A stretch of 48,072 nt of DNA from Nemertoderma westbladi (Eukaryota > Animalia > Xenacoelomorpha), in the NCBI GenBank assembly GCA_032718475.1, contig JAUCBJ010000963.1:1-48072 (forward strand), given 5' to 3'. Positions 3,163-37,063 of the stretch are shown here, in pieces. Position numbers and translations under genes: made by a program. A model generated the notes under the pieces. That model was not told the DNA's origin, searched no databases, and worked only from the letters and a program-made list of their open reading frames with translations. Numbering within the stretch: the first letter of the stretch is position 1; each line of letters starts with the position of its first letter.

Positions 3163-3189
3163 TTTGATGTTTCATTAGAGCTTGTAGGG

Positions 3190-8849: not shown

Positions 8850-8857
8850 GATCTCCT

Positions 8858-11375: not shown

Positions 11376-11383
11376 CTTCAGAT

Positions 11384-11552: not shown

Positions 11553-12832
11553 TAGCTTGACTTTGTATCTACCCTATTACCCCAATATTACTAATGAGTC
11601 ATTTGAATGAACTTAACATTTTTATCTTAACATATTTACATCATATTTATCATTGTCTGATGATAATGCTATGTAATTTAATTCAAGCTACTGGTATATA
11701 ACAGGACGACTTCTTACATTGTATACATTATGCCTAATTGCACATCATATCGTATAGACAAACAGAAAAGTGTGATAACACTGTACAGTGTAATGGAATT
11801 ATATTTTACTGATAACATCATTACATCTACGCCCCTGAATGCTGATAAAACAAAAATTGAATAAACAAATAAAATTGCAGAGTCCAAAACCAAGAAACCA
11901 ATAGTGTGTTTATTCATTGTATTTAGGCATACTTTGCTATTTGCTAGAGATTAGAATTAAAATGTAAATCAACATTTGTATAGTACCGGTAATGAAATTA
12001 AATGCAATGAATTATAAATTACCTGTATCTAATGAATTATCTGTAACACTGTATAAAAAATTTCTCAAATTATAATAACATAAATATTGATTGTAATTTA
12101 AAAATGACATCAGATGTCAGAAAAGGATTTCTTATCTTAGGTAAGTGTCAGAAAAAATACCTGCATTAAATTACCTGGTCGCATGTCAATAAATACGCCG
12201 AAGCTAGCTAAAGCGAAGATGAGTAGATCAACAATTGAAAATAAGCAGAAGATGAATTTTTCACCGTATATGCCGTGGCATATGCAATTATACCTATATT
12301 ATATGTTAAATTACCATATCAAAACTCCACACCAACCATTTTTTTTTCTGATATCCCATTTTTTTTGGAAACCTGAATTTTTCTCAGGTAACAGGAATAA
12401 ATTTTCCCCAAAAATTGTTGTGACTATTAGTAGGATTGTTATTGTTAAAGACAGGTTTTAATGCAATGACAAACATAGACTCACGTCTGACTCAGGTCAC
12501 GACTGCCCTTCTATATAGTACAACGTTTTTTCCAGAACAATGGGATAATGTTTTCTATTTAATAATTTTAATATATATTTCCCTAATTTTAATATATATT
12601 TCCCATTTATTCTTCTGATTTAATAAATCATAAACTAAAATAAATAGACCAAGCCTAAATATATTATATATATGAAATCTTTGTTAACTACAGGTGGAAA
12701 TATTTATTGTCATCCGTTGCTTAATAATATGAACAGACATAGGTTATTAGGTGGTTGTATAACTTAATATTATCTTACTATCATGCGTTATCATTATTCC
12801 AAAGTGTCAATATTTTTTTATTTAATTTGGGA

Positions 12833-14154: not shown

Positions 14155-14327
14155 AAAAAGAACCATAGAGTGTTAGGTTACATATTACATATATATATAT
14201 TTATATTCTATAGATAAGTATTAATGTAGGCTGTGGCTTTAATTAGTGACTAGACGAATAACTTTTCAATGAAACTGAAACTTGAAATTTTGCTACGGTT
14301 GACTTGGAAAACAAAGGATGTTCTGAT

Positions 14328-14640
14328 AACTAGAAAGTCAGCAAACTGGCTTTAAGAAGACCGTCTATAAGAAAAAAACCGAAGAAACTAAATGAAAATC
14401 CCCATGAAATATCAATCCAAATCAATATGTAAACCTCTCCCTCCATGTAGCCATGGAGAAAGCAGAATTAATGTCATGACCAGTTCCAAACAGACAACCC
14501 TCCCCAATCAACACTGCAGCCTCCTTGCTACCTCTCTCTGCCCAGCTAGCTACGAGTTCAATAATTACCTAACGTTGATATGATACAGAGAAAAATCCTT
14601 CACCATTCACTAACAGTCTGATTCAAGCCTGCTTGGGCGA
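14328..14640. mobile_element. Partial copy of the MITE family at 28361-28869
   Basis: Starts aactagaaagtcagcaaactggctttaa, similar to 28361 aactagaaagccagcaagctggctttaa. Confidence 0.45.
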
Positions 14641-16032
14641 ATATTACAAATTTATACACTATATAATTTTTAATCAATAAACAATCATACATCTTTATAT
14701 TAATCTATCGAATAAATAAAAACTTTGTGAGAATGGGACACGGCGAATCGACTTATGGTATACGGTACTTACTACTTAACTTTACTTACTACCTACTACT
14801 TAATTGTACCTCATTAATTAATTACCGAAATAAGAACCCAAATAATCGATACGTCATTTCTTTGTATAGTTGACCATCAATTATAGGGGTGTTTGAAAAA
14901 GGTGTACTGGACACAGAAAACATGGACAGTGGACAGACCAATCACGGGCGATTTGCATCACACAGCATGTCCACCTTTTTCAGCTTTGTTGTCCACCTTT
15001 TTCAAATTTGAATAAGGTGGACTGGGCAGGACATTGGAAATAACAGGCAATGAATTGACCAATCAGATTGATTTGCACATTATAGCATGGATTATTATTG
15101 TTATTATTATCCCATACTTACTGTGACCAACCGAAGTTGTTCGAAATTCAAGTTCAATAATATGGGGCGAGCCACGAAGTCTGTGAGCTTAGCCTTAGCA
15201 TCAATATTGGAACTTCAATATTCTAACTCATCACAGTATAAAGTTAATTATAATAACTACCTATTGTACTGAGAGGAAATTATAATATGCTTTATTTACC
15301 GTTACCGATACTGCCATGAAGTACAATGACATTGGAAATGAATGGACGTTAGTAACAAGCTCAGCAGTAAGAAACTTGGCCAATGCATCAATTGGAGGAG
15401 TAGGAATTCTGCTAAGTCCATTTGCACTTAAGACCCTAAACAACATCGAATCTATAAATTCCAGGGTTATGATCGCAACATTTGATGGTAATCCCAAGAC
15501 AACAGTAATATGTTGCTACAGTCCAACCAATGCCTCAGAGCCAGAACAAGCAGTCAAGTTTTATGAAGATCTGACTGGTCTTATAAAGGACATAAAGGTA
15601 AAGGATCAAACACAATGTTAACGTCATTGCTGATGAAACAAAAAGTGGAAAAACAGCATGATCAACTACGAGGCATACAGCTCGTTCAACCTAATTGGTT
15701 CGGACCACAGAATTGTGACTGCAGAGATCAGACTCAGTTTGAGAGCCAGCAAACCCAGGACAAGCAAGCAAATCAACTATGACTGGGAGAAACTCAGAAC
15801 TGACAATGCAGTAAAGGATGCTTACACAGTAGAAGTTCCAAACCGCTTTGAAGCACTTCAGTCAATGGATGAAGACTAGTCCACCGATTCAATATACCAG
15901 AATATAATAAAAGCCCACAAGGAATCAGCTAAGAGGCATATCCCCCAGAAACCCAAACGAAAACAGTATGTCCCACGGCAAAACTCTGAGGTTACTTGTA
16001 AGAGAGAAGATCTTAAGATAGCCTACAAAGTA

Positions 16033-16102
16033 CTACTACTACTACTAGGATCGGCATGCTGCATTGCAGCTGCATTTTTAAGAATGCTGTGCCGGCTTGT
16101 CA
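16033..16102 (-). mobile_element. 70-bp 3'-terminal fragment of the 12833-14154 RTE family, 8-bp TSD ACAAAGTA
   Basis: Near-identical to 12833-12902; ACAAAGTA at 16025-16032 and 16103-16110; removal restores host frame DLKIAYKVKTEQ. Confidence 0.9.
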
Positions 16103-16396
16103 ACAAAGTAAAAACCGAACAACCAACAACCGAAAACATTAACAAGATTGAGAAAGCTAAGGACGATCTTAAATTGGCCTACAACATCAGCCAGGAAAAG
16201 TATATACAGGATAAAATTGAAGCAATTACAACTGCTCACATACAGCAACAATCAAGACTCACCTGGCAAACTGAATGAGGTATCTGGTCGGAAAAGTTGT
16301 GCAAAGGGGCGCCTCAAAGCCGATAGTCCCGAAGAACGTGTGGGGAAGTGGAAAAATCACTTCAGCAACTTGCTTGGGCAGCCACCAAACATTGAG

Positions 16397-16649
16397 TGAT
16401 AATTAAAGGTCGTACGCGACATCCTGACTAACAGGGGCTTGTTATATATATATAAAAAATAAATAAACAGGTAAACAATAGAGTCTTACACCCCACAAAG
16501 CAATAAAAAAAAATAACATAGAATCAGGACATTATGCCCAAAATCGATGGCCCGAGGGCCGAGTACTATTTTGGGCGTAATGTCCTGATTCTATGTTTTT
16601 TTTTTATTTTTTTGTGGGGTGTAAGACTCTATTGTTTACCTGTTTATTT
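16397..16649. mobile_element. Palindromic insertion (hairpin 16460-16650) inside the RTE LINE
   Basis: taaataaacaggtaaacaatagagtcttacaccccacaaa mirrored by tttgtggggtgtaagactctattgtttacctgtttattta; flanked by accaaacat(t/c)gag. Confidence 0.8.
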
Positions 16650-18439
16650 ACCAAACATCGAGGTCAGCCCTACAAGGAAAATATATGACAAGACACTACC
16701 TATAGAGACAGGGGACTTCACACCTGCGGAACTCCAAAGAAGCATTAAAAGCATGTCCAATAATAAAGCGAGTGGATTAGATGAAATCCCAGTGGAGGTA
16801 TGGAAAACAGGAGTGCTAAACAGACCATTATTGAATGTTTGCAACCGGATGTTAAAAGGGGAAAAGCCACCACCAATTTGGACTAAAGGTCAACTAAAGC
16901 CTCTCCCCAAGAAAGGAGACCTCGGTATACCAACAAACTATCGTGGGATCTGTCTGCTTGTGGTAGCTGCCAAAATATACAATAAAATGATTCTATATAG
17001 GATTAGGCCTCACATAGAGAAACTACTGCGTAAGAGCCAAAACGGATTTCGACCAAGTAGATCAACAATAGCTCAGATACGTGCACTATGGAGACTGATT
17101 GAAGGAATTAAGTCAAAGAATCTCACTGCAGTCATGACTTGTGGACTTCAAGAAGGCATTCGACTCCATCCATAGAGGTAAAATGCTTGAAATCCTAAGA
17201 GCTTAAGGAATACCAGAAGTAATTGTTGCTGGTATTGGATTGTTATATTGTGACACAGAAGCACAGGTACTCTCACCAGATGGTGAAACTGAGTTTTTCT
17301 GAGAAACTTCGCGGATGACATCGCCCTGCTTTCTAATCCGCTAGCAGATGCACAGCTTCTACTAAATAAAGTGGAGAGGGCTGCTAAGGAGGTTGGATTG
17401 CATATAAATGCTTCCAAGACCGAATTCATGACTTTTAATGTTGATGGACACTTGACAACCATTGATAATAATCAACTAAGGAAGGTTGACGACTTCCAGT
17501 ACCTAGGATTATGGATAGAGAGTAGCAAAAAGGACATAGAAGTTATTAAAGCAAAGGCTTGGGTAGCTCTATCAAAAATGGATACCATCTGGAAATCAGA
17601 TGATTCAGAATCAGAATCAGATCTTCAGATACCATCTGAAGACTAAGTTATTTCGAGTCACAGTGGAAAGTGTATTTTTATATGGGGGTGAGACCTGGAC
17701 ACTCACTAAATCACTTGAACAACGAATTGATGGTTGCTACACAAGACTACTAAGGGCAGCCCTAAACATCAGCTGGAGACAAAACATGACAAACGCCGAG
17801 CTTTATGGTACAATACCACCTGTATCAAACACCCTCCGTGAATGCAGATTAAGATTCAGTGGGCACTGCTGGCGAAGTAAAGACGAGGTCATACCAGATC
17901 TACTTTTCTGGCAACCAACTCATGGAAAGCGTAGTCGTGGACGACCGGCCATAACATATATAGATCAACTTGAAAGGGATGCTGAACTTGAGAGAAACGA
18001 AATTGCGACAACTATGGAGAATCGGGAAGCCTGGAAGGATCTCATTTCCACTGTCCGAGTTCGCTCGACTTAGTGGTGGTGGTATTTACCATTCATCCCA
18101 AGATCTGTTATTAAACGACGGAGCGCAGCGAGGGAGGTAAATAAGTCCCCATATTTTGGGAGTGGCGGTACGAAACCCTAATTCAAAGTGGAAATGGAGG
18201 TCCAAAACCTTAACTAAAACTGTCATGTAACCCCAACCTTAAATATTTTGGATCCCAAATTCCACAAAATTTCTTAGATTACAGCATCGGGACTTTAAGG
18301 TTGCAGGGTTACTAATGACAGTTTTAATTAGGGTTTGGGCCTGACCAACTAACCCCAACCACAAAATTAAACCAATAAATCCAAGTTAAATTGCTGTACG
18401 GTACGCTAGACCTACTATTATTATACTGTAAGTCTATAG

Positions 18440-18533
18440 GAGGACAATCCGCTCGCTCGGGGGGTAGATACGCCTAGGACACCGACAGCATTCTTAATGC
18501 AGCTGCTTCCAGCATGCCCATTATAGATAGATA
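18440..18533 (+). mobile_element. Short 3' end of a related RTE-like element with (ATAG)n tail
   Basis: acagcattcttaatgcagctgcttccagcatgcc resembles the sense 3' end of the 12833 element (acagcattcttaaaaattcagctgcaatgcagcatgcc). Confidence 0.55.
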
Positions 18534-19269
18534 ATTGAAACCTGAAAAAGGTGGACAGTCCAATCACTAATAAATTGCATTGCTTTAATACGTTTCTGAT
18601 TGGTCGGACAGTCCACCTTTTTCAAACACACATCTTATTCCCAATTATGTAACTAAGAAAGCGAAAACTTGAAAAAGGTGGACAGACCAATTGCTACAAA
18701 CTGCTTTACATAATACGTTTCTGATTGGTCTGTCCGTTTTCCATGTTTTCTGTGTCCAGTCCACCTTTTCAAACACCCCAATTATAGCACATTACCTTCC
18801 AAGCCAATGTCAATGTGCACAAACATACATACATACAAACATACGTTTTTTTTTCACAGCAAGAAGCCCTGACGATCTTCTAATAAATTTAAATACTAAT
18901 AAGTTGCCTACCAGCTTACTAAAGGCTAATTTATTTTCCCTACATATCTAGGAACATCACTGAACACAAGTTTTCCCACTAACTTTACTCAATTCGCTGA
19001 ACTTTAGCAAAGAATTTGACAGTTGGGAATTTCACTTTCGTACGCCTCCCGCACTTTACAATTTTTTGAAGCAATAATTCTGAGACATAAACTGCTGCAG
19101 GTTTTCCAAACTGCTTTTTTATAAAGAACCGATAATTGGTTTTTCCAAGAAACACAAGCACTATAATATTTTAGTTCATTTTCTTGATGCACAGTGCTAA
19201 AGTATGCACAAAAAGTCGTACGAATGTCCCGCACTTTACATGGAATGGGCAACTTGCTATATAATATGT

Positions 19270-19296
19270 CAGATTGGGCTGGCCAGGGGCGGGGCT
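19270..19296 (+). promoter_or_regulatory. Candidate proximal promoter: inverted CCAAT and GC box
   Basis: attgg at 19273 and ggggcggggc at 19286-19295, just upstream of the metalloprotease ORF. Confidence 0.35.
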
Positions 19297-19362
19297 ATCA
19301 ATATTAAACAGACCATGGATTCCCTGTTAAATAACAGGTCAGTTAAGAAGTCCACATAGTCT

Positions 19363-19932
19363 ATGAGAAGAATATTAAAGAGGTTTTGTTTACTAATAGT
19401 TTTAAATATTTCAGATTACCAAATTCTTGTTTCATTATTTTGCATTAAAGGTGTTTTATGTTATTTACCATTATATACTGCTACGCATGGTGATGAAATC
19501 GTATTCAATAGTCGATTAGAAAGAAATCCATGGTTTCCCGACCGTGGTAGATCCTGGAGAAACTGTAACTGTAAATATGTTTCACCGGTTCCCATTTCTG
19601 TGAAAGAAGAACTCAAACTATCTCCTTTCTACAAGAAATACCTCCACGCTTACGGTATTCCAATAATAAGCTCGGACAAGGTATCAGACAGTGCACTAAC
19701 TCGAGCCTGTTATACGGTTTGGTTTCTCTTCGCTGATAGGCGGGATTTAAGGGACGCTTACTATAACGCTCAAGGACGAGTCGGTGTTATCGCATCCAAT
19801 GAGAGGGCCACTGACATTCCGGAACATGCTCCTTTCTCAGACCTCGGTTGGTCGCGAGGATTGGGTGCAACTTTATTTGCTCCCATATCAACTTCTGGAG
19901 AGGAGAACCAAAGTTGTTATCCCAGGGCAGAG
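19363..19932 (+). CDS. Exon 1: signal-like N terminus and N-half of the zincin domain
   Basis: LSPFYKKYLHAYGIPIISSDKVSDSAL...TDIPEH...SRGLGAT...STSGEENQSCYP; donor gag|gtaaat. Confidence 0.85.
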
Positions 19933-22900
19933 GTAAATGCAAATAAACTATAATTCATACAATTAGCTTTTATTTATTTGAGTTAGTTTCCTCCCGTGGA
20001 TGGTTATCATTACTGTTTCTCGGTATGCCAACTGTGTTCTCTTCATAAACAGTTACAGATCCGAATTTTCCATTTAATTCTAAATTATTCAAAATACATC
20101 CATTCAATATGATAATGTATTTCAAATATAAAAAATTATTTTAATAATTCATGAAAATTATTGCATTTATTTATAAATTATAGTTATTATATAATGACCA
20201 AGGCGTTCTTATTTTGCTCTCAAGGATCCATATAGTGGGGAGGACATATTTGTCCATGAGCTTGCTCACGGAATACATGGAGTGGCTATATTAGAACATG
20301 ATAAAGACGGATTGTTTGCTGATATTAAGAACGCCTACAAGATGGCAATGCTAAATGGGTTATGGTATGACACGTATGCGGCAACTAATTCAAATGAGTA
20401 TTTTGCAGAAGGTAGGGAGGGCATTTAACATACGTAAATTATACAATTAATAGTGGCCATAAACTATAACAACCGCTATTCAGAACATGTATAACTTTGT
20501 AACAGAACCGAACCGCTATGCTTTAATATTAAACTGACCACTAACAACCCTTAGTAGAATATATACTTTTTTTTTTATCAATAATGAGAAATTTTAAATT
20601 TCTTTGAGGTGAGGGTGAGGGTGAGGCTAGGTTTTGTAAGAATATCATTAAATATTTAGTGAAAAGAGTTCAGTATATTTCCATTGGAAAGTACAGAATT
20701 TATCAATCGTTTCTTAGGAAATGTAATCCGGTCCTGCAGATTTCCCTTTTTTTAGGTCAGCTTAGCGAGACCTCTCGTAACCAATCCGTTTGTTGTTTTT
20801 GGTGATTTCCACTTTACTTTTGCTCACTTGATACAGTATTACGCTTTTGCTCATGTAGAGCGTTGGACTTGGATTTCGAGATACCGGGTTTAATCCCACA
20901 CTTAGTTGTTATAGATCGATTTTGTAAAATTGGAGGTAGGAAATTTGAATTACTGCACTACTGCTGCACTACAGTGTGAATTTGCTTTAACCCTCAATAT
21001 ACCGTGGGGAGTTTCATATGATTATTATGTTATAAATATTTCATATTATTAATTTCTTTTGTTATTCTGTTCCCTACATTATTTATTACATTAAAATAAC
21101 ATATTTTGACTTAGAAGGAATTTAATTGAATTGCAATTTTTGTTAAAAGGTTAATAGAACAACCAATTAAATAGTTATATATAAAACCTCCAATCAATTT
21201 CCCTTCTTCGAAATGTTCCACAAAAGCAAAAAAAGCAAACACTTTTTATAATATATTTATTTTAGTTACCCAAAGTTATTTTGGAGTGAATGGGGAAGGA
21301 GGTAGCAACCGCCCCGATGGCGTTCACAATCACATTACTGACAGGTACAAGTTACTGGAATACGACCACTTCGCCATGTCCATCATTAATGCCACATTTC
21401 CGTGCCACAATAAGATAATTGACAGATGTTCGCGCAGAGGTTTGTTATAAATATATAAAATATTATTCAATATTATAAATAAAAAATTCTATAATATAAT
21501 ATTACAATTTACAATGATAATAAATTTCATATAAATAACTTTATAGAGGCTCATGTGGCCTGTTAGTTACCTGCTATTAGCATGTTATTAGCCTGCTATT
21601 CGCATGTTATATTTCTTTTAATTATTATAATATATTAAAAAATAAATAACAGAACTCGTGGCATACCCATTAATGTTATGTGGTTCTTAAATATCTCTAC
21701 CGGTAGATATAGGAGATGTCAATATAATATCAGCCTCTATCAATAAATTATGGCCTAATAATAGCAGACATTTCAAATGGATTAACCTGTAATATTACAG
21801 GTTTCAGAGACGGCTTGTAAGCGGATTCAATTCCATACATTATCCACCCGAAAATGGGACCAGTGGCATTTTATTAATATAGTTGGGGATACGAGATTAC
21901 CAATAATAATTTCGCCTCATAACCAACTTTGGGGGGGGGGGGGCGAAGTGCCAAAGTGACAATTAGTATATTAGCCAATACCAGGGAGGGAAGCACGTGA
22001 ACAGAGATAGGAAAGCATCCACTGGGTACAGAAGGCCAAGTAGAGTAAGAGGTGAAACCAATATCTATGTGTATCAATCATATATTATTCTGTGTTACTG
22101 ATTTACCGGTCAGTTCATTAATCACAGAGTTGCAGACCGGTCATAGTTTATGACCGTCACCGCCACCAACATAACCAATTAATATCTGTGTATTTTCTGC
22201 CGTTATTCTGTATCGTGATATTCATTACATACTGATTCTGTGCTATTATCATCCGGTACATTAATATTGAAAAACACAAACTCTATTATTTTCCCCGACG
22301 GCCTTCGGCCAAAACGACTATAGTACAACAGCACCAGCGGAACGGTGACGCGTACAAATCTAACCCGGTCGGGATCTACGATCCCGTCACACGGCTTTTT
22401 CTAACCAAAACAATAAACGATGTTGTTACCAATTGAGGGAAAGGAGCAGGTTACTGAGACGGGTTTTTCTAACCAAAACAATAAACGATGTTATTATACA
22501 TTTATTACCGGGATGATAACTACCCCTTAGTCTGGGCTAGGGCCAAAAAAAAGTTATTTTGTCCTAAGGAAAAATAACCTTGTTATTCCCTCTTAGAAGT
22601 AGTGAAATGTTTATCGTGACACCACATACTGACAAACAAACATAGGAACAGGTAATGATGGTAACAGGTAACAGGATATGATTTGCAGGATATAAGCGCA
22701 TGTCATATAGATATTTTTACATACGATATAACAACAAACGATATTGTTTTGGTTAGAAAAAGCTGTCTCTATAACCTGGTCCTTTCTCTCAATTGTAATA
22801 TATTTAATTGTAAATATTTTTCGTGGAATTTCTTAAATTTTATTACATGTTTTGAAAGAGCATCAAAGTAGAAAATGTTTGAAGCTTAGCACGTAATTTG

Positions 22901-25900
22901 AGCAAAATAAATGCAGAAACTAAACAGTAAATAACTTAATATATTCTTAATAAACTTAATATATTCCAGAACCATATATATTATTTAACTTTTAGTAAGG
23001 CAGCATCAGGAGGAAGAGTACAGTAATTTGAACCGCAGAACTACGATAGCAATGTAGTAAAATACTGTAGTAAGAAAAGTACCAATTTAAGAATAAAATT
23101 ACGTATTATATGGGAAAAACGTAGTATATTTTATTCAATATTTTCTCGAACCTTTATTAACTTCGCTGGCGCTCGGTAAATAAAATAACTCGAGAATAGT
23201 GAAAAAAGTTATACTTTTTATTTTCCTAAGTAATAAATAATTAATTATGCTAATAAATTTATTTAATGTGAACGATATACACCCCCCTTCTGTGGGTAGT
23301 GGATACATGACATGCCCACCAAAAATGCTATTCAATTCATTCAGCCAATTTAGTTATATATCTAATTTGAAGTTTATGCAATGTTACCCCTAGCGGCCAA
23401 TATAGGAAAATATAGGAATTTTAGAATGTAAACCATTTAAATAAGTTTGACATCAATTTTCACTAACAAATTCGGGTGCTTTTTTGATGATCGAATCTTA
23501 CGGCGATTGGATTAATTAAGCCTAGAACTACACAACACACATGACACAGTGATGTTTTACCTTGGAGCTTGGGTGTTATTATTCCATTGGGCAAAATAAC
23601 TCCTATTCAATTAATGAATTAAGGGGAATTATCGTTCCAGGTTCAAAAAATTAACAATTTTTTACAAGTGATTCTAAATCAAAATTATTCGCTGATTTCG
23701 ATAATGAAAACCGTTTTACAATAGCTTCTCTGGTTCTCGAGATATTAGGAGACTTAGATATTACCTTCTAAGACAAACCAGATTTTATAATCTTCTAGTG
23801 TACATAATTACTCCTATTACTCCCACTGGTTGACGTAGCTCATTTGGTAAAGCGTTGTTGGGTCGGCGGGTGCAATTGTGTGCGGTGAGAGTAGGGCGAT
23901 AGGTCGGGGAGTATGTGAGGACCTAAGGCGAGGAAGGATGGAGAGTGATAGTTAGTAGAGAGTGTGGAAGTGTACCGGTAGGCGGTAGGGAGTAGAGTGG
24001 TACTTGGGTTGCGCGGATTAGGTTTATTGCTCGGATTCAGTAATTGGTTATTGTTAATTGTGTAAACTGGTTTATATTGTTATATTACATATATATATAA
24101 TAAATGATTGCATTTACGCTAGAAGATATATTGATTATTTAAGTGACTGGGAAGTTTGGGAGAACGTTCGTTGTATTCGATGCTACAAGCTATCACCGCG
24201 AGGCTGCATTTACTTATTTCCTATTACAGTATTAGGCCTACTGTATTACCGGTCAACCGGTAACATAATTTTGACACCGCTAGCCTACCACTGTAGGCCC
24301 TATACTTAACGGACGCGGTACTTTAAATAGCTATAGCATCTGTGCAACCTCAGCTTTAAATAGCTATAGGTGCTCCCCGTATAATAAATGTTTACCTGTA
24401 GTACAATCCACTGTGTCATTTAATGAAATAGTTTGTAATTTATCAGTGGGATTAGATACATTTTGTACTCATTCATTGATTTCACAGGGTTTTTTAGACC
24501 GAAATAATGTAAAGTATGATTATTGTGTAAAGACTCTAAATACTTTAGGTGACAAAGTGCCTTTGGTTGGTATGGTGTCATGTACTTTATTCAATGCACC
24601 AGGTGTTAGCCAGCCAGTAGAACTTCAACTGCATGTTGTCGATACAGAATCACTATTTGGGACGGATGCATTATTTGGTATCGATGCAATTCAACATGTT
24701 GGTGGTATTAACTTATCCTATGACAGGCAGTCTGGTGCAATGGCTGTTTGTTTGACTCAAAGTGTGATCAGTGGTGACAGTAAAGTACAGAGCCTTGGAA
24801 GGCTCCATAGTGAAGTCATTGAAACACCATTACAAAGTAGTGTTTGCTCTGCTGCTTTCCAGGATGCTGGGGGAGACAAAGTGGAAGTGTATGGGCGTGA
24901 TGAGCAGTCTATCAGGGGTGTGAATAGTGAGTTAAACGTTAATGCACCTGAATGGTTCCCCCCCAGACATACTGTTCCGTATCCCCGTCTGGGTAAATTT
25001 GTTAAGGTTGCTAAAAGTGTGAATGGAGATGTCGAACTTGTTGAGAAAGATTTTGTAGTTACATGGCTGAATGAAAAACGATATTGGGAATTGAAATGGA
25101 CATGGAAAGGGGGAAACCCTCCGATAAAACATCTGGGGTCTGGTCTTGGCGATTATGGCATCACTATAGGGCAACCACAAAGTAAACTCCTTAATGCTGA
25201 GGTTAACAAATGGATAGAAAATCGCTGGGTTGAGAAATATGAGAGGGAAATGCATGGGGAACTGAGAGGACTTCTCCCACTCATTCCCGTATTACAGGAA
25301 CACAAAGATACTACTCCTGTGCGACCTGTTTTAGACTATACACCCCTAAATAAGTGTGTTCAAGCTGATCCAGGGCGCCAAGTCGCAGTTTGTGATGAAG
25401 CTGTGCGTAGCTGGCGAAAAATGGGGAATCATACTAGGAGTCTAGACCTATCTAAGGCATACTTACAAATTCATGTTGTAGATTACCTTTGCCTATATCA
25501 TGGTATGCTTTGGGATGGAACCATTTATATTATGAAACGTATGGGATATGGCTTAGAAATTGCACATAAAGTGTTGAATGCTGTTGTACTCTTTGTGTTA
25601 GATACAGCTGGATACTCCCCTGATGAGGTAGAAAAATATGTAGACGACATATATGTCAATGAGGATAAGGTCAAAGTGGAAGACGTTAGGGTTAACCTTG
25701 CATGCTATGGGTTAGTTAACAAAGAACCCACAGATCCAAATGAAATGCGCCTACTTGGCATAGATGTTCAATCCAATAAGTGTGGTGTTTTGCAATGGAA
25801 ACGATTTTTAAAGTCATTACTGTCTGTGCCGCATCCGTTGACCAAACGTCAGCTGTTTTCTTGGTGTAGTAAGATTGTTGCGCACTATCCTGTTGCAAGC

Positions 25901-28900
25901 TATTTACGTGTGTGTTGCAGCTGGCTTAAACGCCAATGCAGCGATGGAATGTGGGACAGTAGTGTTAATGATGTAGTTGAGACATTAGCCCATGATCTAT
26001 ATCATATGATCGAACTCGATGATCCTGTGAAGGGGCAATGGACAGTGCTGGACAAAGATGATACTAAGGTTGACATCTGGGTTGACTCTAGTGATATTGC
26101 ACGAGCAGTTGTTTTGGAAGTTGATGGTGTTGTGGTGGAGGATGGTGCATGGTTCCGAAAATTAAAAGATTCAATGCACATTAACATTGCTGAGCTTGAT
26201 GCAGTTATTGATGGTTTAAATCTTGCAGTAAAGTGGAACTTAGTGACTAAGAACTACAATATATTTACCGATTCAGAGACAGTAAATAGGTGGTTGTGCC
26301 AAATGCTTGGAAATGTACAGCGATTCAAAATAGGGGGACTGTCTGAGGTTATTGTAAAAAGACGTCTGCAAGTGATTGAAGAAATTGTTGACTGTTATCA
26401 TTGGAATATTAATGTTATCAAAGTTGCTTCTAAGGATAATAAGGCTGATCGATTGACCAGAATTCCTGAAAGGTGGAGAAAAATTGTTCGGGCAGTTGAA
26501 CATACTGTTGATGATGATGTTATATGTGCTGGTGCACATTTACCTAAGACCGTTGTTGGAATAGATGTTGGTATAATTTGTGCGAGGCAGGATGCTAATC
26601 TGGAATTAGCTGCCGTGAGACATGCCATAAATACCAATGATTGGAGTGAAGTCTCAAAGCATTGTGTTTATAAAGGTTTGAAGTCGCAGCTGCATGTTGA
26701 TTCATCTGGCTTGCTTTTAAGAGAAGTTAAAATTCCTCCTAATGATGTGGTTGATGTACCTGTGATTCCCAGTGATTTAGAGGCTGATGTCATTAGAAGA
26801 GGTCATTGCTCTTCTGGTCATAGCTGTTGGGAGATATCCAGGAATTATTTACGACGTATATGTTATTTTCCATCCATGGCAATAAAATGTCAGGAATTTG
26901 TAAGCACCTGTAGAGAGTGTTGTTTGGCTAACCCGGTTAAACCAGAAAGTAGTTATCCCTCAGAGAGAACTGTAATAGCTGACCATCCGTGGCAAATTGT
27001 GTTTGTTGATTCTCTCAAGGTGGGTGAATCTTCATTGTTGGTTATGGTTGATTCGCTTTCAAAGTGGGCTGAAGTAGAATTTGTTCCATCTTTGTCTGCA
27101 GCAGACGTGACACCTATATTTCTTAATAAGTGTATACAATGGGGCCCCCCTGAAGTCATTCGTTCTGATGCTGGCCCTGAATTTGTAAATGGTCTGATAA
27201 AAAGTGTGCAGGCCGTGTTCGGTTTTAAAATGTTACACGGTGCAGTTAGAAATCCTCGAAGCCAAGGTGTCGTGGAACGTTACCACCGTACTTTTTTGAC
27301 GATCTTAAGAAAAACTTTGATCAACCGACAAACGAATAGTGGTAAATGCACAGTAGAACAAGATGAGTTAAATTGGATTCTTTATTACTACCGTAATCGT
27401 CCTAATACTTAAATTGGTATATCACCCATGAAAGCCTTTTGTGGTTGGGAACAGGGTGCAATCAATTGGACAAGTGCAAAAGGTTACAGCCCTAGTACAT
27501 GGGTTGGTCACTGTATGAAACTAGCCGCCGAGTTGTTTGATTACTTGGAGCTACAACTCTCAGCATTAGATAATGACCTAAAAATTGTAACAAGGCAGTT
27601 CACTGCGGGGGACAGTGTTTTCTACGAAAAGACCCCAGGGCCGGAAAGGCATTCACTCCCTGGGAAGATGGGTGGATGGTTGTGGGACAGAAGGGACCGG
27701 CTACTTACCTGATAAAGCACAAAAACCATAAACGCCAGCAAAAGATTGTAAATGTAGATTTGTTGAGACACCTGATGAAACAACAAATAAAACTGACATT
27801 ACTCTTAACAACTTTACAACTGGTCCCATTCGAGAAGTAGTTACCGATTCGAATTCATTAGATGAAGTTATTGTTGAATTGGAGTCTCCAAAGCCAAATG
27901 TCCTTGTGGTTGACCATGGTATTGGTGAAGGAGTCTTATCTAGTAGTGAGAGCGATGTTAGTGAGTGTGAGGACACACGTGGGGTTATCACTAGGAGCGG
28001 CCGGATTGTGAAACCTCCAAAATACTATGGTTATTGAGAAAGTACAATTGCAGGGGGAGATGTTGGGTCGGCGGGTGCAATTGTGTGCGGTGAGAGTAGG
28101 GCGATAGGTCGGGGAGTAGGTGAGGACCTAAGGCGAGGAAGGATGGAGAGTGATAGTTAGTAGAGAGTGTGGAAGGGTACCGGTAGGCGGTAGGGCAGTA
28201 GAGTGGTTTGGGGGTTCAGATTCTTGGTAGAGGATATTAAAATTTCTGTAATAATTTTTATTTGAAATTTTAAAGGTACCGGCCAAGTATAGGAACATAT
28301 TTGTATTTTTAAATTTCAAATTTCCCTCCAAATATATATGACTAACGCTTTTATCCTGCAAACTAGAAAGCCAGCAAGCTGGCTTTAAACGAACCTGCCC
28401 CTCAAACCAGTTCCCTGAGTGAGCGAAAATGAAAACACGAAAATTGCCATAGACTCATTGATAGCAACACCAGCTGCTGGTACTCATGAGGGCCTAGCCT
28501 AGTAAGCTACTACTATTGATTGAAGGGATAGGCCCAAACTGCACAGAAGTAGGCTTATATTACTTGCTAAAATATATTATTCTCTCACTCTATCCCAAAC
28601 AGTAATCAAACATCAACTGTTAGTTTGGATAATGTATTACCCCGACAGCTGAATAGCTCTTCCCAGTGAATCCTATGGGAATATCTATAAGGTTACTACT
28701 ACTCACTGCTATGTTAGGTGGGGGGCCAGCTGATTGAATTTTAAGCACTGGGCCGTTCAAATGTTTTATAGAATAAATGAGATGTTGTATAATGAATGGG
28801 GAGGGACCCAACTACACTACGTTTGTCAATGGACGGTCTCTTTATAGCCAGCTGGCTGGTTTTCTAGTTGAATCATATTATTCTGCAACCAATAATTTAC

Positions 28901-31900
28901 TCCTTTAGACGAATTTGTGCATTTGTTTGCCGGACTAACAAATTTTGGCGACGTTCTGTGCGAGATTGGCGATATTTGAAAAGATTCTGAGACTCAAATA
29001 TGTTGCTCAAATGACTGAATAGCCCAAATAAAAAAAGTTGGTGAATACTCGACGAGTCGAATCGGTGAAATTCGACATTAAATTTTCAAACCCGCTATTT
29101 TTCACTGACCCCTTGATGTAAACGCCACAAAAAAAATATACAGTCTTGTGCGCAACCAAAATTATGTAGAGGTTGTTATTAAAATTTTCGTGTACCTGCT
29201 TGAGTTTTTGAGATATTGGATGGTTATACACACACACACACACACAAACACATCGTGTTTTTCAACGGCTCAACTCTTGACAAGAACAAGAACTACCCTG
29301 GCCTATTAATAGGCAGGTTCGTTATAATATCCAATATGGGGGGTGGGGGGGTAACAGGAATCATTTGTGTGACGGGGGTGGGGGGTAACAGGAATGGGTG
29401 GGGGGGGGGGGGGGGTAACAGGAATGACGCGCAACGGGAATCAATAAGTGAGTCGGCCAGTCGGCGGGGTAACAGGAATGGGGGGGGGGGGGGGTTAACA
29501 GGAATGGTCGGGGGGGGGGGGGTAAGTGTAAATTCTGGGGGGGGGGGGGGGGGGGTAACAGGAATGGGGGAAGGGAGGTAACTGGAATACACGCAATTCT
29601 GATTAGGGGTGTGGAGGGCGTGACCTGTACCACAGTTAGACACTTCTTACTGTTGACATTATAATATCATTTTACAGACTTGTTTCGGGATTTCACTACG
29701 ACCTTTGGATGTCAAGGTTTAAGCGCACAAACAAGGGTCAATTACACTCTCAACGATTTCCATCTGAGCGAGGGTAGGGACGGATACACTCGTCTGTTAT
29801 CGCCTCCACCGTGCAGAGATTCCGTCACTTTTTGTGAGAGGTTGGAGGAAGAAGGAGTATGTGAGAAAAACCCTGCCTATAGTTGGAACAACTGCGCGAA
29901 AACATGTCATTGGTGTTTCCGAATTAGTTAGTAAAATATTTTTAGAAATATTAAAATGATCTTAGGTATATGAGGTTCTTCTATTAATGGGTGTAACAAT
30001 TATTGTAGAAAGTATTGGTTGTAAAAATAACCATTAATTGGTGTTTCCGAATTAGATAGTAAAATATATCTTTGATATTAAGTGACGACAGCTTCTAAGC
30101 TTCCCAGTGAATGGAATGTAGACGGGCTGTCCAATACATTATTCTCACACAGACAGTCCGCAAAGATACGCCGGTGCTTATTGCTATCGGGGTCCCAAAC
30201 TCCAACTGGCGGCGTTAAATTCAACAATAGTTGTATTGGCTGCTCTGAAATAGTATAGTGGCAATCAAGCAAACCTGTAGCCCACGACTCTTCTCAGCAG
30301 TCTAGAAATATCAAAATCTAAACGTTTGCCAACCACTCACTCCCCTACACCGATATGCTGAAAGATGCACCTAAATCAGTCACACCATCGCACCCCGTAA
30401 CACATCCACAGTTGACGATTGTCCATATACCTCGTCTTTCCATCTACATTACCAAAACCACTGTGGTTTAGCGGACGTCTGAAGAATGTCTATGATATAA
30501 TATTACTAGTCGTGTGGCCGTGGTAGGTTTGTTTGAATAGATTGAAACGTGTTTGATATATCTATTGTACTATTATTTCTGATATTTTCAGACACACCTG
30601 ATCCTCCAACCCATTTGTCGTTGAACACATTGACAACAGGTCTTGTTGGAATCAAATGGCTGGCAGCTTACAACGGTGATTTGCCTGTATCATATAAAAT
30701 CAAGGTAAAAGACACTCGTTTCATGTTGGGTGGTGGTTCAAATGAAACTGAAGATATGGTAAATGGGTTCATAGATTGGATGACCTTCCATACCGATCAG
30801 ACTATGTTTGCTATACCTGGATTAATACCCAAAGTGGTCTACAAATTCCGAATCCAAACTCTACACGCATATGCGAAGAGTGTATTCACAGAAGCGGTCG
30901 TATACTCCCCGGAATTTGTAGCTGGTGAGTAATTATTAATATCAGCCACATTCAACTTCAGATAGGGAACAGGAACTCTCAAGTTGATGCTATGTTCAGC
31001 CATTTTCTGCCAAGTTCTGAAGAAGCCGTCAGCACGCAATGCTGTCAAAGGAAATATGTTGGCTCGTGAATGGCTCATCGTATTGATATTGATATCCGCA
31101 ACCACAAGAATACCCTCAAGTTGTATCTCCCACGGACTGTTTCTTTTTGCAGGTACAACTGAGGAATGCGAACAAGTTACCCCAGCCTACGGTGCTGCTA
31201 TAGAAATAGTAGTGGTTTTAGCTGTTTTGCTGGCGGTTGCTGCATTAATTATCTTAGTATTAGTAGTCCGACTTCGACGAATGCAACACAAATGCGGATC
31301 TAATTTTAAACTCCACAAGACAACAAATGGATTTACTTCAAAGCATCCAAATCTAACGATGGTATCATCAACTTCATCAACTGCTGAATTACTACCAATG
31401 GCCCCAAAAAGTCCATTTAAGTAAGTTTACTTTAATTACACAAAGTGAGTTGGAGAGGTTTTGAAGTGGATAAAATGGCTGTCGGATTGACACAATAACA
31501 GTTGAGTTAACAAATTTTGTATTATCTTGTTATTTCTTGTAGTACAAATCTTGTATATGTATATATTTGCTATGCCATGCCGAATATGTAAACGTAATAC
31601 AGCTAAACGGACAGTTGGTAATAATAGTACATCATAATAATGCTAGGTGATGTCAGGAGAGAACCTAAAACAAATTGAAATAGTTTTATTTTCTTTTTAT
31701 AATTTTTTTACAGACATCCAGAGATGTAATTATTATAATCAATAAACAAAATCGACGAATCGGGGAAATCTGACTACAACCGACAGCCAACAACCACAGG
31801 CAGCAACCGACAGCCGACAACCACAACATATTATCGTTATAAACGTTGAGCCAGAGAGGAGAGGGGACGCACAAGGGGTTGTCGGATGTCGATTGTTGGC

Positions 31901-32406
31901 GGTCGGTTGTCGGTTGTCGGCTGTGGTTATCGTTTCTCGGTTATGGTCTCAAACCCGCAGGGATGGTGATTGTCTCAGGAGTTCTATATGCATCACCACG
32001 GATAGTGATTATTCACATAATGGCTTATATTGTGCCAATATCTGTAAAACTTCCATCGATTTCGCATATTTCAAGTGGGAAATGAATTTCTGTTAAAAAT
32101 TTCTAGATATATTATAGAACAATTAGCAAAAGGAAATAATAAAAATATTTTTGATCTTTAGCTGTTTTGATTCAACAATTAACATTAATATTATAATTTA
32201 ATCCTATCTGAAATATATTATATTATTTTATTTATTTATGATAAGCTCTTAATTATACTGTTTTCAGAGAACGGCTACAGAGAAACTTGAAATCTATACA
32301 ACAACATGTTAATCCAACCAAGAACCTGCAGACAGTACCGGAAGAAGGTATCAGCAATCCGTCGTACCACATAGAAACCAACCTAGATGACGATGGCCCA
32401 GTGTAG
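19363..32406 (+). CDS. Predicted type I membrane zinc metalloprotease: signal peptide - lethal-factor-like zincin - ShKT - FN3 - TM - NPxY tail (~639 aa, 7 exons)
   Basis: Exons 19363-19932, 20225-20411, 21266-21439, 29678-29926, 30592-30924, 31153-31420, 32268-32406; all introns GT..AG with phases 0,1,1,1,1,2; total 1920 nt with no internal stop. Start codon uncertain (possible acceptor at 19414). Confidence 0.85.
20225..20411 (+). CDS. Exon 2: catalytic zinc-binding motifs
   Basis: DPYSGEDIFVHELAHGIH...GLWYDTYAATNSNEYFAE; acceptor ctcaag|, donor g|gtaggg. Confidence 0.9.
21266..21439 (+). CDS. Exon 3: zincin C terminus
   Basis: VTQSYFGVNGEGGSNRPDGVHNHITDRYKLLEYDHFAMSIINATFPC; ttttag| and g|gtttgt. 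Confidence 0.88.
21816..22391. mobile_element. Solo LTR (576 bp), TG...CA, 5-bp TSD CGGCT
   Basis: cggct|tgtaagcgg ... cccgtcaca|cggct; interrupts a unit of the 68-bp repeat family. Confidence 0.8.
22392..22800. repeat. Dispersed copies of the 68-bp repeat family in inverted arrangement
   Basis: ttctaaccaaaacaataaacgat twice (22399, 22468) and the opposite orientation ttttggttagaaaagc at ~22747; same family as 38057-38410. Confidence 0.7.
23856..28207 (+). mobile_element. LTR retrotransposon with PR-RT-RH-IN order, lacking a full gag, 3' LTR truncated; lies in intron 3 of the metalloprotease gene
   Basis: LTRs start tgttgggtcggcgg at 23856 and 28061 (3 differences over ~146 nt); PPT gcagggggaga at 28050-28060. 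Confidence 0.9.
24413..28037 (+). pseudogene. pol: Pol polyprotein (protease, RT, RNase H, integrase); nonsense codon at 27410-27412 and a later frameshift
   Basis: LDTF (degenerate DTG), LDLSKAYLQI, YVDDI, WVDSS/HINIAEL/FTDS/NKAD, HCSSGH..CREC, IRSDAGPEF, SQGVVER; ends TRSGRIVKPPKYYGY*. Confidence 0.9.
28361..28869. mobile_element. MITE with imperfect ~38-bp TIRs
   Basis: aactagaaagccagcaagctggctttaaa / tttatagccagctggctggttttctagtt. Confidence 0.7.
29336..29582 (+). repeat. G-run tandem repeat (Gn-TAACAGGAAT)n, G-quadruplex potential
   Basis: Several runs of 10-20 G separated by taacaggaat. Confidence 0.8.
29678..29926 (+). CDS. Exon 4: linker and ShKT domain
   Basis: CRDSVTFCERLEEEGVCEKNPAYSWNNCAKTCHWC (6 Cys in ShK spacing ending CxxTCxxC); tttacag| and a|gttagt. 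Confidence 0.88.
30592..30924 (+). CDS. Exon 5: fibronectin type III domain
   Basis: PDPPTHL...IKWLAAYNGDLPVSYKI...IPGLIPKVVYKFRIQTL; phase 1-1 exon. Confidence 0.88.
31153..31420 (+). CDS. Exon 6: transmembrane helix and juxtamembrane tail
   Basis: IVVVLAVLLAVAALIILVLVV followed by RLRR; ttgcag| and aa|gtaagt. Confidence 0.88.
32268..32406 (+). CDS. Exon 7: cytoplasmic tail with NPxY
   Basis: KERLQRNLKSIQQHVNPTKNLQTVPEEGISNPSYHIETNLDDDGPV*; ttttcag| in phase 2. Confidence 0.8.
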
Positions 32407-33162: not shown

Positions 33163-33690
33163 CTTGAAGTCGTGGTTACGAACTCCACTTGAAGTCGTGG
33201 TTACGAACACCACTTGAAGTCGTGGTTACGAACTCCACTTGAAGTCGTGGTTACGAACTCCACTTGAAGTCGTGGTTACGAACTCCACTTGAAGTCGTGG
33301 TTACGAACTCCACTTGAAGACGTGGTTACGAACTCCACTTGAAGTCGTGGTTACGAACTCCACTTGAAGTCGTGGTTACGAACTCCACTTGAAGTCATGG
33401 TTACGAACTCCACTTGAAGTCGTGGTTACGAACTCCACTTGAAGTCGTGGTTACGAACTCCACTTGAAGTCATGGTTACGAACTCCACTTGAAGTCGTGG
33501 TTACAAACTACACTTGAAGTCGTGGTTACGAACTCCACTTGAAGTCGTGGTTACGAACTCCACTTGAAGTCGTGGTTACGAACTCCACTTGAAGTCGTGG
33601 TTACAAACTCCACTTGAAGTCGTGGTTACGAACTCCACTTGAAGTCGTGGTTACGAACTCCACTTGAAGTCGTGGTTACGAACTCCACTT
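33163..33690. repeat. 25-bp minisatellite, ~21 copies
   Basis: (cacttgaagtcgtggttacgaactc)n with rare substitutions and no spacers. Confidence 0.95.
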
Positions 33691-33743
33691 TAGAGAGACA
33701 GGTAAATTGTCCTTTCGGCATGAAAGCTACAAAGTGACCGTTG

Positions 33744-34115: not shown

Positions 34116-37063
34116 TATTGGGATCGGAAATAAATGAATACCAGCTGCATCAGTTTATTAATGGTCGACATACAGAACAGCATATCAAACAATAATATGA
34201 ACCAACAGACCAACGAACACACCCACCACCTTACAGCACATCAGTACAGCAGTACAGTAGGTACCGGTAACGGTTACTGTACCTACAGACCTAGAAGATA
34301 GGAAAGACTGAATACCGGAATACCAGAAGAGGACCGGTAGGTAAAAGACCAGTAGGTTGGATCTAACCACCACCAAGCCAGGGTCTACTAGAGCCCTAAC
34401 AATACATAATCTAACATCTCCCCCAAGAACAATGTAGGAGACATTTGTACTGAAAAAAAAAAAATCCAACCACCACCAATAGGTCAGTTCATTGAACTCC
34501 GAATCTTGCTGGTTGCTTGTGAGTTCTCGAACTGCGCCTGGGAAGATCATCAGCGAACTGTACCTGTTTTTGAGGCGTTATGTCACGAAGAGAAGAGTCC
34601 TCTGGGATGGAACGCAGATAACGACGATTTCTCCAATACACCCGACCATTGTCTAGTTCTATCCTGTAATCTCGCCTAGTACCACGGGAAAGGACGATAC
34701 CAGATTTGTTCCATAGTTTGGAATGTGCACTCTGGATGCAAACTCGGGAACCAATAGGAATCGGGGTTAAGTCGTGAGCATGATCATTATAATATGATTC
34801 AGTTGCTGAAGACGTTGAAGGACCAGGGATAGGGAATGAATCACCTGCCAGTGTGGACGAATGAGCTGGTATAGTGGAACGGAGGGATCTACCGAACAAC
34901 AGTTGAGCTGGAGACATACCATGTTCTTTAGGAGTATTTCTCCATTCCAGCAAACCACGAACAAAGCAAGTAGAGTTTAGATCTCCTTTGATATCTAACT
35001 TTTTTATCAATGATTTCATGGCCTTTACAGCCCCCTCTGCATGGCCATTAGACTGAGGATACTCAGGAGTAGAATACTCAGGGATGATATTCCATTCGGA
35101 TAAGAAATCATGATAACGTGCTGAATTAAATTGTGTACCACCATCAGAACGAAGGCGTTTTGGAATACCGAAATCTTTGAACCATCCTCGAAGAGCTGAA
35201 ATAACTTGAGAGCTGGAAGGATCGGCACGCCAAGAATGAACGCATGGCCACCCAGAATATCTATCGACATAAACCAGGTATGACCAGGTGCTGAAGTAGA
35301 AAAGATCAGCAGAGCAATCCTCCATTGGAAGACATGGATGAGGGTCGCTTTGGAGAGACTCTTTAGGTAAACTTGGTTGATAAAGTTGACACTGGGGACA
35401 AGAATTGACTATGTTTGTAATATCGCTATTGATACCAGGCCAGAATACAGTTTGCCTAGCTCTCCTCTTAGAACGTTCAATGCCCTGATGAGCATCATGA
35501 AGGTGCTTCAGGACATTCTTGCGGAGGGAAGATGGAATTACAATCCGGGAACCTAATAAAAGAAGATTATCTTCACAAGATAACTGATGTCGCACATTCC
35601 AGAATGGGCGTATGTGCACAGAACATTGTGTGGATGTTGAGGGAAATCCAGAAATAACAGCATCCACCAAAGCCATGTAAGAAATATCATCCTTTGCAGA
35701 TGATCGGATAGACTCAATATATGAATCCTTGAGATGACTTGGAGCATCAGAGACAACAATTGAGGTAGACACGTGACGAATGACTGCAGAAACATGGTCA
35801 TTGACATCTGTATCACAAAGAATATCCTCTGGAGTAGGATCTGAAACAGGGGCACGGGAAAGTGCGTCTGGAATGGAATGTTCACTTCCCTTTCTCCATG
35901 TTGTATTGAAGAAATAAAGGGTGAGTTTCTCTTTAAGACGTTGGATTCGGGGATTGTCTATCATATCCAAAGTATAATTGTTTAGGATAGGAAGAAGAGG
36001 TTTATGGTCAATTACCAACTCGAATGATGGGAGACCCATAAGATACACCTTACACTTCCTAGTAGCCCATATGACGGCTAACAGTTCAAGCTCTATCATT
36101 GCATAACGTGATTCAGTGTCAGTGATGAATCTTGAACCGCACTGAATGAGTTTCCAAAAGCTGTCGTGTTTCTGAAGAAGTGAGAAACCAAGACCCTTCA
36201 AACGTGAAGCATCTGTCTGCAACATTGTAGGCAGCAATGGATCATATGGAGCTAGAATTGGAGGACTTACAAGAGCTTTCTTAACTGCTTGAAATGCAGT
36301 TTCTTGGGGTTCTGACCAACAGAAGACATTTTTAACTTTAAGAAGGTCCCGAAGAGGGCCTGCCTTTTCGCTAAGAGAGGAAGTGAACTCACCTTTCACA
36401 AGACCCAAGAAAGATCTAAGTTCAGAAATGTTGGTCGGAACAGGAAAGTCAGCAATAGCATTAAGTTTGGAAGGATTTGCTTGAATACCATTACTACTAA
36501 TTATATATCCTGCGAAGCACACCTCAGGGGTAGCTAATTTGAATTTCGCAGCTTTGAGACTGATCTGGTGTTCACGACACCGATCCAGAACGGCAATAAT
36601 ATGTGTGAGATGACTGTGACTATCGGAAGAATGAATTAGAATGTCATCAACTACTTTAGCAATGCCATCCAATCCCTGTAAAGCTATATCACCACGAAGA
36701 CAAAACACATCTTGTGCTGAAGTTAATCCCATGGGATTCCTAAGAAACTTGAATCGACCCCAAGGGGAAATGAATGTTGTTAAATTCTGACTGGATTCAT
36801 CAAGAGGTATCTGCCAATATCCATCCTTGGCATCTAATGAAGAGCCAACCAACAGACCAACGAACACACCCACCACCTTACAGCACATCAGTACAGCAGT
36901 ACAGTAGGTACCGGTAACGGTTACTGTACCTACAGACCTAGAAGATAGGAAAGACTGAATACCGGAATACCAGAAGAGGACCGGTAGCTAAAAGACCAGT
37001 AGGTTGGATCTAACCACCACCAAGCCAGGGTCTACTAGAGCCCTAACAATACATAATCTAACA
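34116..37063 (-). mobile_element. Gypsy (Ty3) LTR retrotransposon with internal deletion, 5-bp TSD AGTAT
   Basis: 3' LTR 34116-34416; 5' LTR remnant 36847-37063 (1 mismatch in 217 nt); PPT ttgggggaga adjacent to 34416; AGTAT at 34111-34115 and 37064-37068. Confidence 0.92.
34489..36888 (-). CDS. pol: Truncated Gypsy Pol (partial RT, RNase H, integrase) with LTR-derived N terminus, 799 aa open
   Basis: LDAKDGYWQ, VVDDILI, LQTDAS, YAMIELE, HDAHQG..CPQC, RSDGGTQF, QSNGHAE. Confidence 0.85.
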   Translation of the reverse strand: MCCKVVGVFVGLLVGSSLDAKDGYWQIPLDESSQNLTTFISPWGRFKFLRNPMGLTSAQDVFCLRGDIALQGLDGIAKVVDDILIHSSDSHSHLTHIIAVLDRCREHQISLKAAKFKLATPEVCFAGYIISSNGIQANPSKLNAIADFPVPTNISELRSFLGLVKGEFTSSLSEKAGPLRDLLKVKNVFCWSEPQETAFQAVKKALVSPPILAPYDPLLPTMLQTDASRLKGLGFSLLQKHDSFWKLIQCGSRFITDTESRYAMIELELLAVIWATRKCKVYLMGLPSFELVIDHKPLLPILNNYTLDMIDNPRIQRLKEKLTLYFFNTTWRKGSEHSIPDALSRAPVSDPTPEDILCDTDVNDHVSAVIRHVSTSIVVSDAPSHLKDSYIESIRSSAKDDISYMALVDAVISGFPSTSTQCSVHIRPFWNVRHQLSCEDNLLLLGSRIVIPSSLRKNVLKHLHDAHQGIERSKRRARQTVFWPGINSDITNIVNSCPQCQLYQPSLPKESLQSDPHPCLPMEDCSADLFYFSTWSYLVYVDRYSGWPCVHSWRADPSSSQVISALRGWFKDFGIPKRLRSDGGTQFNSARYHDFLSEWNIIPEYSTPEYPQSNGHAEGAVKAMKSLIKKLDIKGDLNSTCFVRGLLEWRNTPKEHGMSPAQLLFGRSLRSTIPAHSSTLAGDSFPIPGPSTSSATESYYNDHAHDLTPIPIGSRVCIQSAHSKLWNKSGIVLSRGTRRDYRIELDNGRVYWRNRRYLRSIPEDSSLRDITPQKQVQFADDLPRRSSRTHKQPARFGVQ

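Follow-up and report, generated by a model that had tools for sequence, protein, structure and literature searches.

The question raised by a 48,072-nucleotide (nt) stretch of the Nemertoderma westbladi (Xenacoelomorpha) genome (assembly GCA_032718475.1, contig JAUCBJ010000963.1, positions 1-48,072, forward strand; hereafter the window) is whether it encodes, in seven separate exons, a cell-surface zinc protease of a type described from bacteria. As far as the available texts go, M34-type zincins such as anthrax lethal factor and the Pro-Pro endopeptidases (PPEPs) have been described as bacterial enzymes: lethal-factor-like peptidases are given for bacterial toxin systems only in the accessible part of PMC3482391, and PPEPs, which are placed in MEROPS family M34, have homologues in two Firmicutes orders according to excerpts of PMC8610288. 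An earlier note on this DNA had proposed a spliced gene that joins such a zincin to ShK and fibronectin type III (FN3) domains, a membrane tether and an NPxY tail. With a probability of about 0.58, we consider that the locus encodes a cell-surface protein of zincin-ShK-FN3-transmembrane-NPxY order that spans the membrane once, its predicted activity being that of a zinc endopeptidase with a PPEP/lethal-factor (M34-like) fold. The zincin belongs to a conserved, domain-shuffled family present in at least seven invertebrate groups and annotated almost only as 'uncharacterized', and the weight of our findings lies more on this family than on the single architecture.

The gene model

The exons listed in Table 1 are separated by introns of 292, 854, 8238, 665, 228 and 847 nt, every one of them bounded by GT and AG. 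Their phases (0, 1, 1, 1, 1 and 2) agree across all six junctions, and the spliced total of 1920 nt corresponds to 639 amino acids (aa) plus a stop, with zero internal stops in any exon. The single open frame of about 639 aa proposed previously was thus recovered. Exons 1, 2 and 3 cover positions 18-149, 149-211 and 212-263 of a family profile built from an alignment of 117 sequences, without gap or overlap (E-values of 3e-47, 3e-22 and 3e-11), a tiling that appears to lie far beyond chance. Because of this tiling, junctions 1 and 2 can be taken as firm at the level of sequence. Junction 3 (21439-29678) is likely: read-through of exon 3 hits a stop after three codons, and exon 4 gives a Cys 14 residues past the exon-3 Cys, a distance that is 12-16 in 49 of 50 family segments. 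The seven-exon gene is, on these grounds, judged to be real, its splicing being predicted. About half of the 8.2-kb intron 3 is a long terminal repeat (LTR) retrotransposon on the gene's own strand.

Table 1. Exons of the predicted gene and the mobile element within its third intron (ORF, open reading frame)
Feature	Position	Strand	Content
Exon 1	19363..19932	+	Possible signal/pro segment, the ~36 leading codons being uncertain; RxxR (aa 51-54); N-terminal zincin half; profile E 2.8e-47, 55% identity to P0121
Exon 2	20225..20411	+	Active-site helix HELAH (20255), Tyr241 (20375), third-ligand Glu248 (20396); ATLF E 2.6e-4
Exon 3	21266..21439	+	C-terminal zincin helices with the family's two late cysteines; profile positions 212-263
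Exon 4	29678..29926	+	Terminal conserved Cys322 of the zincin, linker, ShK (29812-29916); read-through meets stop at 29929-29931
Exon 5	30592..30924	+	FN3 domain; Pfam fn3 25.8 bits (cut-off 25), Atlas score 0.96 (fn3 clusters)
Exon 6	31153..31420	+	Short stalk, predicted transmembrane helix (~31206-31268), basic stop-transfer residues, start of tail
Exon 7	32268..32406	+	Remaining predicted cytoplasmic tail, NPSY (32356-32367), stop
LTR retrotransposon in intron 3	23856..28217 (3' end approximate)	+	135-nt LTR cores 99% identical; pol-like ORF 24284-27412

The first ~36 codons may be intron, and the true N-terminus may lie further 5' in another exon, because positions 19363-19470 have an intron-like GC content (21-23%, versus 40-46% in the other coding parts) and contain a branch-like CTAAT as well as a CAG (19414). 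However, inverted CCAAT and GC boxes sit 70-90 nt 5' of the modelled ATG, and crude scans of positions 8400-19300 gave no signal-like upstream exon. At 19315-19359 (+), a 14-codon ORF in the exon-1 frame opens with a strong-Kozak ATG and closes with a TAG, three bases short of the modelled ATG. At the other end of the gene, a strong acceptor in intron 6 (31714-31729, +) could, from a reading of the sequence, yield an alternative, short final exon with five codons before its stop and without the NPxY motif. A near-copy of the end of exon 4 (~35 nt) together with the donor region lies 129 nt downstream, at 30038-30075 (+). A tblastn search of the window with 240 relatives, together with a ShK profile, revealed no additional exon or ShK.

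The zincin domain and its family

Both zincin motifs claimed for this locus are located in exon 2, with HELAH at aa 201-205, EYFAE at aa 248-252 and 42 residues between them; all five catalytic residues (H201, E202, H205, Y241 and E248) are present. The metzincin signature HExxHxxGxxH is missing, since HELAH is followed by G-I-H-G-V-A and positions 8 and 11 are His and Ala. Instead, the Tyr lies 7 residues ahead of the third-ligand Glu, the layout of PPEP-3, for which the available text of PMC12828418 gives H153/E154/H157, the oxyanion residue Y190 and the third ligand E197.

The fold was modelled on a stand-in, the Acanthaster protein P0121, which is 55% identical over 128 aa of exon 1. Its AlphaFold model has a mean confidence score (pLDDT) of 89, and the Foldseek matches at an E-value of 0.001 were all PPEP structures (E 5e-5). 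VIA-align placed PPEP-2 first (Z 12.9, root-mean-square deviation (rmsd) 3.3, 171 aligned residues), followed by PPEP-3 (Z 12.7), lethal factor (9.9), Certhrax (9.5), the MtfA-like 3dl1 (8.6) and collagenases (6-7). No metzincin is among the 50 structural-match rows for P0121, a list that by itself excludes nothing. When the family profile was compared with PDB sequences, lethal factor was the best match (E 0.0012) and PPEP-1 scored 0.048, both aligned over HExxH-Tyr-Glu; a phmmer search of PDB with exon 2 gave zero matches. Because of the motif and the fold of the stand-in, we regard the domain as a lethal-factor/PPEP-type zincin and not a metzincin, as had been proposed. The toxin-like fold claimed by the earlier note is supported as to type, but the predicted fold is nearer to the secreted PPEPs than to lethal factor.

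The remaining parts of the proposed protein were found as well. Pfam scans, run exon by exon, returned ShK in exon 4 (23.4 bits, cut-off 20.9) and FN3 in exon 5; an NCBIfam scan returned nothing above its cut-off. Exon 6 holds one strongly hydrophobic helix (top 19-aa hydropathy 3.62 at aa 523), and an NPxY arises in 696 of 100000 shuffles of the 96-aa tail.

The exon-1 search gave 144 longer relatives and 157 of similar length, and 120 of each were listed. Animal matches among those listed came from amphioxus, Mytilus, gastropods, Potamilus, a barnacle, Lineus, Clytia, Porites and sea stars, to which a look-up of 10 proteins adds hemichordates, a crinoid, a brittle star and a sea cucumber. 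They share 36-62% identity over exon 1 as well as the motifs and cysteines, and the relatives are mostly named 'uncharacterized', 'hypothetical' or 'ShKT domain-containing'. Judged by sequence, the domain is therefore not unique to the window and is a member of a family found in cnidarians, molluscs, nemerteans, barnacles, echinoderms, hemichordates and amphioxus. An Atlas cluster of 52 eukaryotic members bears an automatic name and is 17% ATLF; the family is therefore visible in databases. No description of the animal family was found in the literature searched, a coverage that left aside subscription journals and supplements, whose gene lists could mention such proteins. The term 'lethal factor' in PMC4202326 and PMC12964963 refers, in the available texts, to unrelated venom proteins.

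The family profile matches 5973 representatives at an E-value of 0.001, and the best 80 bacterial loci include 35 from Planctomycetota, 19 from Verrucomicrobiota and 14 from Bacteroidota. A tree of 86 rows was built with the window, 53 of 83 animal-type domains (near-copies removed) and a sample of 32 out of the 278 remaining domains. A branch with an SH-aLRT (approximate likelihood ratio test) support of 99 separates the animal sequences from the bacterial relatives, and the single row labelled 'bacterial' within the animal side is an amphioxus domain. The window places near hemichordate sequences with a support of only 86. Because the tree was obtained by a quick method and is unrooted, we claim no direction of transfer. 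The set H, E, H, Y and E is retained in 75 of the 85 domains of animal type and in 272 of the 276 others.

Architectures were compared across 82 animal-type proteins (82 of the 83 rows), many of which are amphioxus paralogues or isoforms. ShK occurs in 59 of them, after the zincin in 36 and before it in 22, and a downstream transmembrane segment is present in 19. The zincin-ShK-FN3-transmembrane order or a ~97-aa NPxY tail was found in 0 of the 82. Membrane-tethered forms are present in amphioxus and echinoderms: the amphioxus FN3-ZP-transmembrane forms carry NxxF tails, and one of them, P0008, has the order Ig-ShK-zincin-FN3-ZP-transmembrane with such a tail and has lost its first zinc histidine. 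The parts list is thus present in other proteins, but this order together with an intact active site and a long NPxY tail was not found among the relatives. The suggestion that the architecture was undescribed thus stands for the order, which seems to be new within an uncharacterised invertebrate branch of M34-like zincins, but not for the pairing of the domain with ShK, which is common, nor for membrane tethering. A search with the FN3 exon gave zero homologues among 54 candidates, which is weak evidence; no orthologue of the C-terminal half was therefore found.

Further fusion partners of the zincin are F5/8, fibrinogen-C and an adhesion G-protein-coupled receptor (GPCR). The latter (P0328/P0382, Acanthaster planci, XP_022107763.1) has GPS and 7tm_2 domains and an N-terminal zincin domain with intact motifs. 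Hemichordate P0332, P0335 and P0347 have a ShK-like module between the last two conserved zincin cysteines, an insertion consistent with exon shuffling at the intron-3 position; their ExxAE motif ends in Lys. The amphioxus-type P0003, P0006, P0008, P0018, P0019 and P0028 are ZP membrane forms with a common NxxF tail that have lost zinc ligands or catalytic residues, and they are likely pseudo-proteases by their sequences. In Lineus, the zincin-ShK protein P0044 has a hydrophobic C-terminus that may be a glycosylphosphatidylinositol-anchor signal.

Alternative products of the locus

A number of observations weigh against the preferred explanation, several of which favour particular alternatives. 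With regard to the fold, the exon-2 match to Pfam ATLF (PF07737) reaches 21.2 bits, under the cut-off of 27.4; the stand-in P0121 scores 17.1, and 55 of 117 family members match at an E-value of 0.01. The window's own exon-1 half was modelled at a pLDDT of 87, with a weak structural match to PPEP-2 as the first hit (Z 4.3, rmsd 4.0, 84 aligned residues) and no Foldseek match at an E-value of 0.001.

The earlier note had singled out junction 3 as critical, but the weakest link of the gene model is junction 4 (29926-30592). Exon 4 can continue to a double stop four codons past ShK, followed by ATTAAA at 29950, and its donor (TTA/GTTAGT) is weak. In addition, 27 of the 36 relatives with a downstream ShK terminate there, within 8 aa, and ShK after the zincin plus a transmembrane segment occurs in 0 of the 82 relatives. 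These features would be explained if the sole product of the gene were a secreted zincin-ShK protein, ~395 aa long and terminating in exon 4, and the FN3-transmembrane-NPxY exons belonged to another transcript or were rarely used. However, exons 5-7 are open, in phase with exon 4, on the same strand and within 665 nt, and a crude scan of introns 3 and 4 gave no plausible signal-like first exon from which they could start separately, its sole candidate, in intron 3, being a low-complexity Gly-rich stretch. A secreted product alone is considered unlikely.

The membrane protein might also be made with a zincin that catalyses little or nothing and serves chiefly as a receptor module for binding peptides. 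Here the loop before the RGLG strand, on the substrate side, has 9 residues and is the shortest, versus 10-18 elsewhere (n=368), and a near-invariant Arg two residues before this strand, present in 362 of 368, is missing. Furthermore, all 10 animal domains with lost catalytic residues belong to amphioxus-type Ig/ZP proteins, several of them FN3-ZP-transmembrane forms, and one relative is the N-terminal domain of the adhesion GPCR. However, the five catalytic residues are all intact in the window, and we judge a non-catalytic role to be improbable.

The same-strand element in the 8.2-kb intron would fit a locus that holds two genes, or one inactivated by the LTR insertion, with 21439 not spliced to 29678. 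The junction-3 test is not specific: 59 of 640 downstream AG sites offer a Cys at the family spacing and 27 of these also keep the frame open, and 29678 is outside the top 15 when these acceptors are ranked by similarity. Nevertheless, exon 3 alone has no terminal conserved Cys, which exon 4 supplies at the family spacing; exon 4 has no Met ahead of ShK; and the 36 of 82 relatives with ShK after the zincin show the same succession. The coral proteins P0123, P0130, P0131 and P0135 lose family similarity at about this position, as they would if they shared the intron. A break at junction 3 is therefore very improbable. Lastly, a conventional metzincin sheddase related to ADAM, MMP or astacin is hardly conceivable and already fails on its motif: ShK and a type-I membrane layout do recall astacins (astacin-ShK, in the available text of PMC6409789), but HExxHxxGxxH is missing and the best structural matches of the stand-in are PPEPs and lethal factor.

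If the locus encodes the membrane-anchored endopeptidase that we prefer, zinc would be bound by H201, H205 and E248, with E202 activating the water and Y241, as in PPEPs, stabilising the oxyanion. After export and perhaps a cut at the RxxR, the protein would take up a type-I membrane topology, in which ShK would serve as an accessory module and FN3 would act as a spacer. Its substrates would be extended peptides or proteins outside the cell, cleaved at the cell surface or in endosomes. NPxY tails bind PTB adaptors, and the tail would couple to PTB/FERM adaptors for uptake and recycling. The FERM domain of SNX17 binds NPxY/NxxY tails for recycling, according to the available text of PMC11772769. 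A secreted zincin-ShK isoform ending in exon 4 would likely exist alongside the membrane form.

The putative protease may favour proline-rich substrates, a weak best guess for which the clues are that no fold lies nearer than that of the PPEPs and that cyclophilin, VHL-beta or DPP-IV domains are found fused to bacterial members. Such fusions make up 42 of the 69 bacterial matches among those listed in the exon-1 search and 16 of 77 in a second set (77 of 95 long candidates scanned), but they are not mutually independent and many other partners occur (sulfatase, Sel1, Ig-like). Hydroxyproline binding by VHL is a property known from the human protein, and the Glu tandem of PPEPs is missing here (N247-E248).

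A wider and more tentative proposal, which we hold to be on balance doubtful, is that a class of PPEP/lethal-factor-fold proteases has been overlooked in animals, that it was acquired once from, or is shared with, bacteria of Planctomycetota, Verrucomicrobiota or Bacteroidota type, and that it was shuffled onto ShK, FN3, ZP, fibrinogen, F5/8 and adhesion-GPCR scaffolds. The present gene would then be an endocytic, cell-surface, proline-directed member, of a membrane-protease class separate from ADAMs and MMPs. Were a family member indeed anchored in the membrane and equipped with a trafficking motif, the cell-surface proteases outside the metzincins would gain a further class, whose substrates and origin would become testable.

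Several other features lie in the window. An uninterrupted 270-aa tetraspanin ORF (40238-41050, -; Pfam E 1.7e-33) has no shown link to the zincin gene; tetraspanins partner ADAM10. Two ORFs with hydrophobic segments (44497-45306 and 45921-46376, both -) have no Pfam match, and the first contains two PPxY-like motifs. A second LTR element (34200-37063, -) has identical 217-nt LTRs and an 832-aa reverse transcriptase/RNase H/integrase ORF. A transposon-like remnant with a THAP domain (~3333-4650, -) is flanked by repeats of 6208-nt period at 1-8500, which stem either from recent duplication or from an assembly artefact. Fragments of LINE-like reverse transcriptase lie upstream of the gene (12880-14200, -; 15286-18073, +), and a 25-nt tandem array lies just downstream of it (33163-33715).

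Comparison with known systems

The type-I membrane or ShK-bearing layout resembles that of ADAM, MT-MMP and astacin-ShK proteins, and MMP23 likewise has a ShK/type-I membrane architecture. Their zinc motif and fold are different, however, and the likeness to sheddases drawn by the earlier note is an analogy only, as no result supports a sheddase role. ShK accompanies astacin and CAP domains, and molluscan ShK-metalloendopeptidases are described as uncharacterised, in the available text of PMC6409789. MtfA/Peptidase_M90 (PF06167) shares the HExxH-plus-Glu zincin layout (Z 8.6 to 3dl1), but it is bacterial and more distant (E 0.26 for exon 2). Anthrax lethal factor and ATLF share the motif layout with the predicted protein, and lethal factor is, as described above, the best PDB sequence match of the family profile. 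In contrast to lethal factor, the predicted protein has no protective-antigen-binding or translocation part and would have an extracellular type-I topology, and nothing suggests an intracellular toxin role.

The closest structural counterparts are PPEP-1, PPEP-2 and PPEP-3, judged by the predicted fold of the stand-in (Z 12.7-12.9), HExxH, the spacing of Tyr and third-ligand Glu and an extracellular setting; some PPEPs also carry anchor domains. Identity is only 15-18%, and the third ligand is preceded by Asn rather than Glu, the PPEP Glu tandem being the element that closes the S-loop in the available text of PMC12828418. Whereas PPEPs have been described from Firmicutes only, the N. westbladi protein is eukaryotic, intron-containing and cysteine-rich, with ShK, FN3 and a predicted transmembrane segment. 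Lastly, the invertebrate zincin-ShK proteins, including Acanthaster P0121, Branchiostoma P0007, P0008 and P0009 and those of Mytilus, Lineus and Ptychodera, share its motifs, cysteines and clade, and P0008 has the closest parts list among them but has lost the first zinc histidine that the N. westbladi protein retains.

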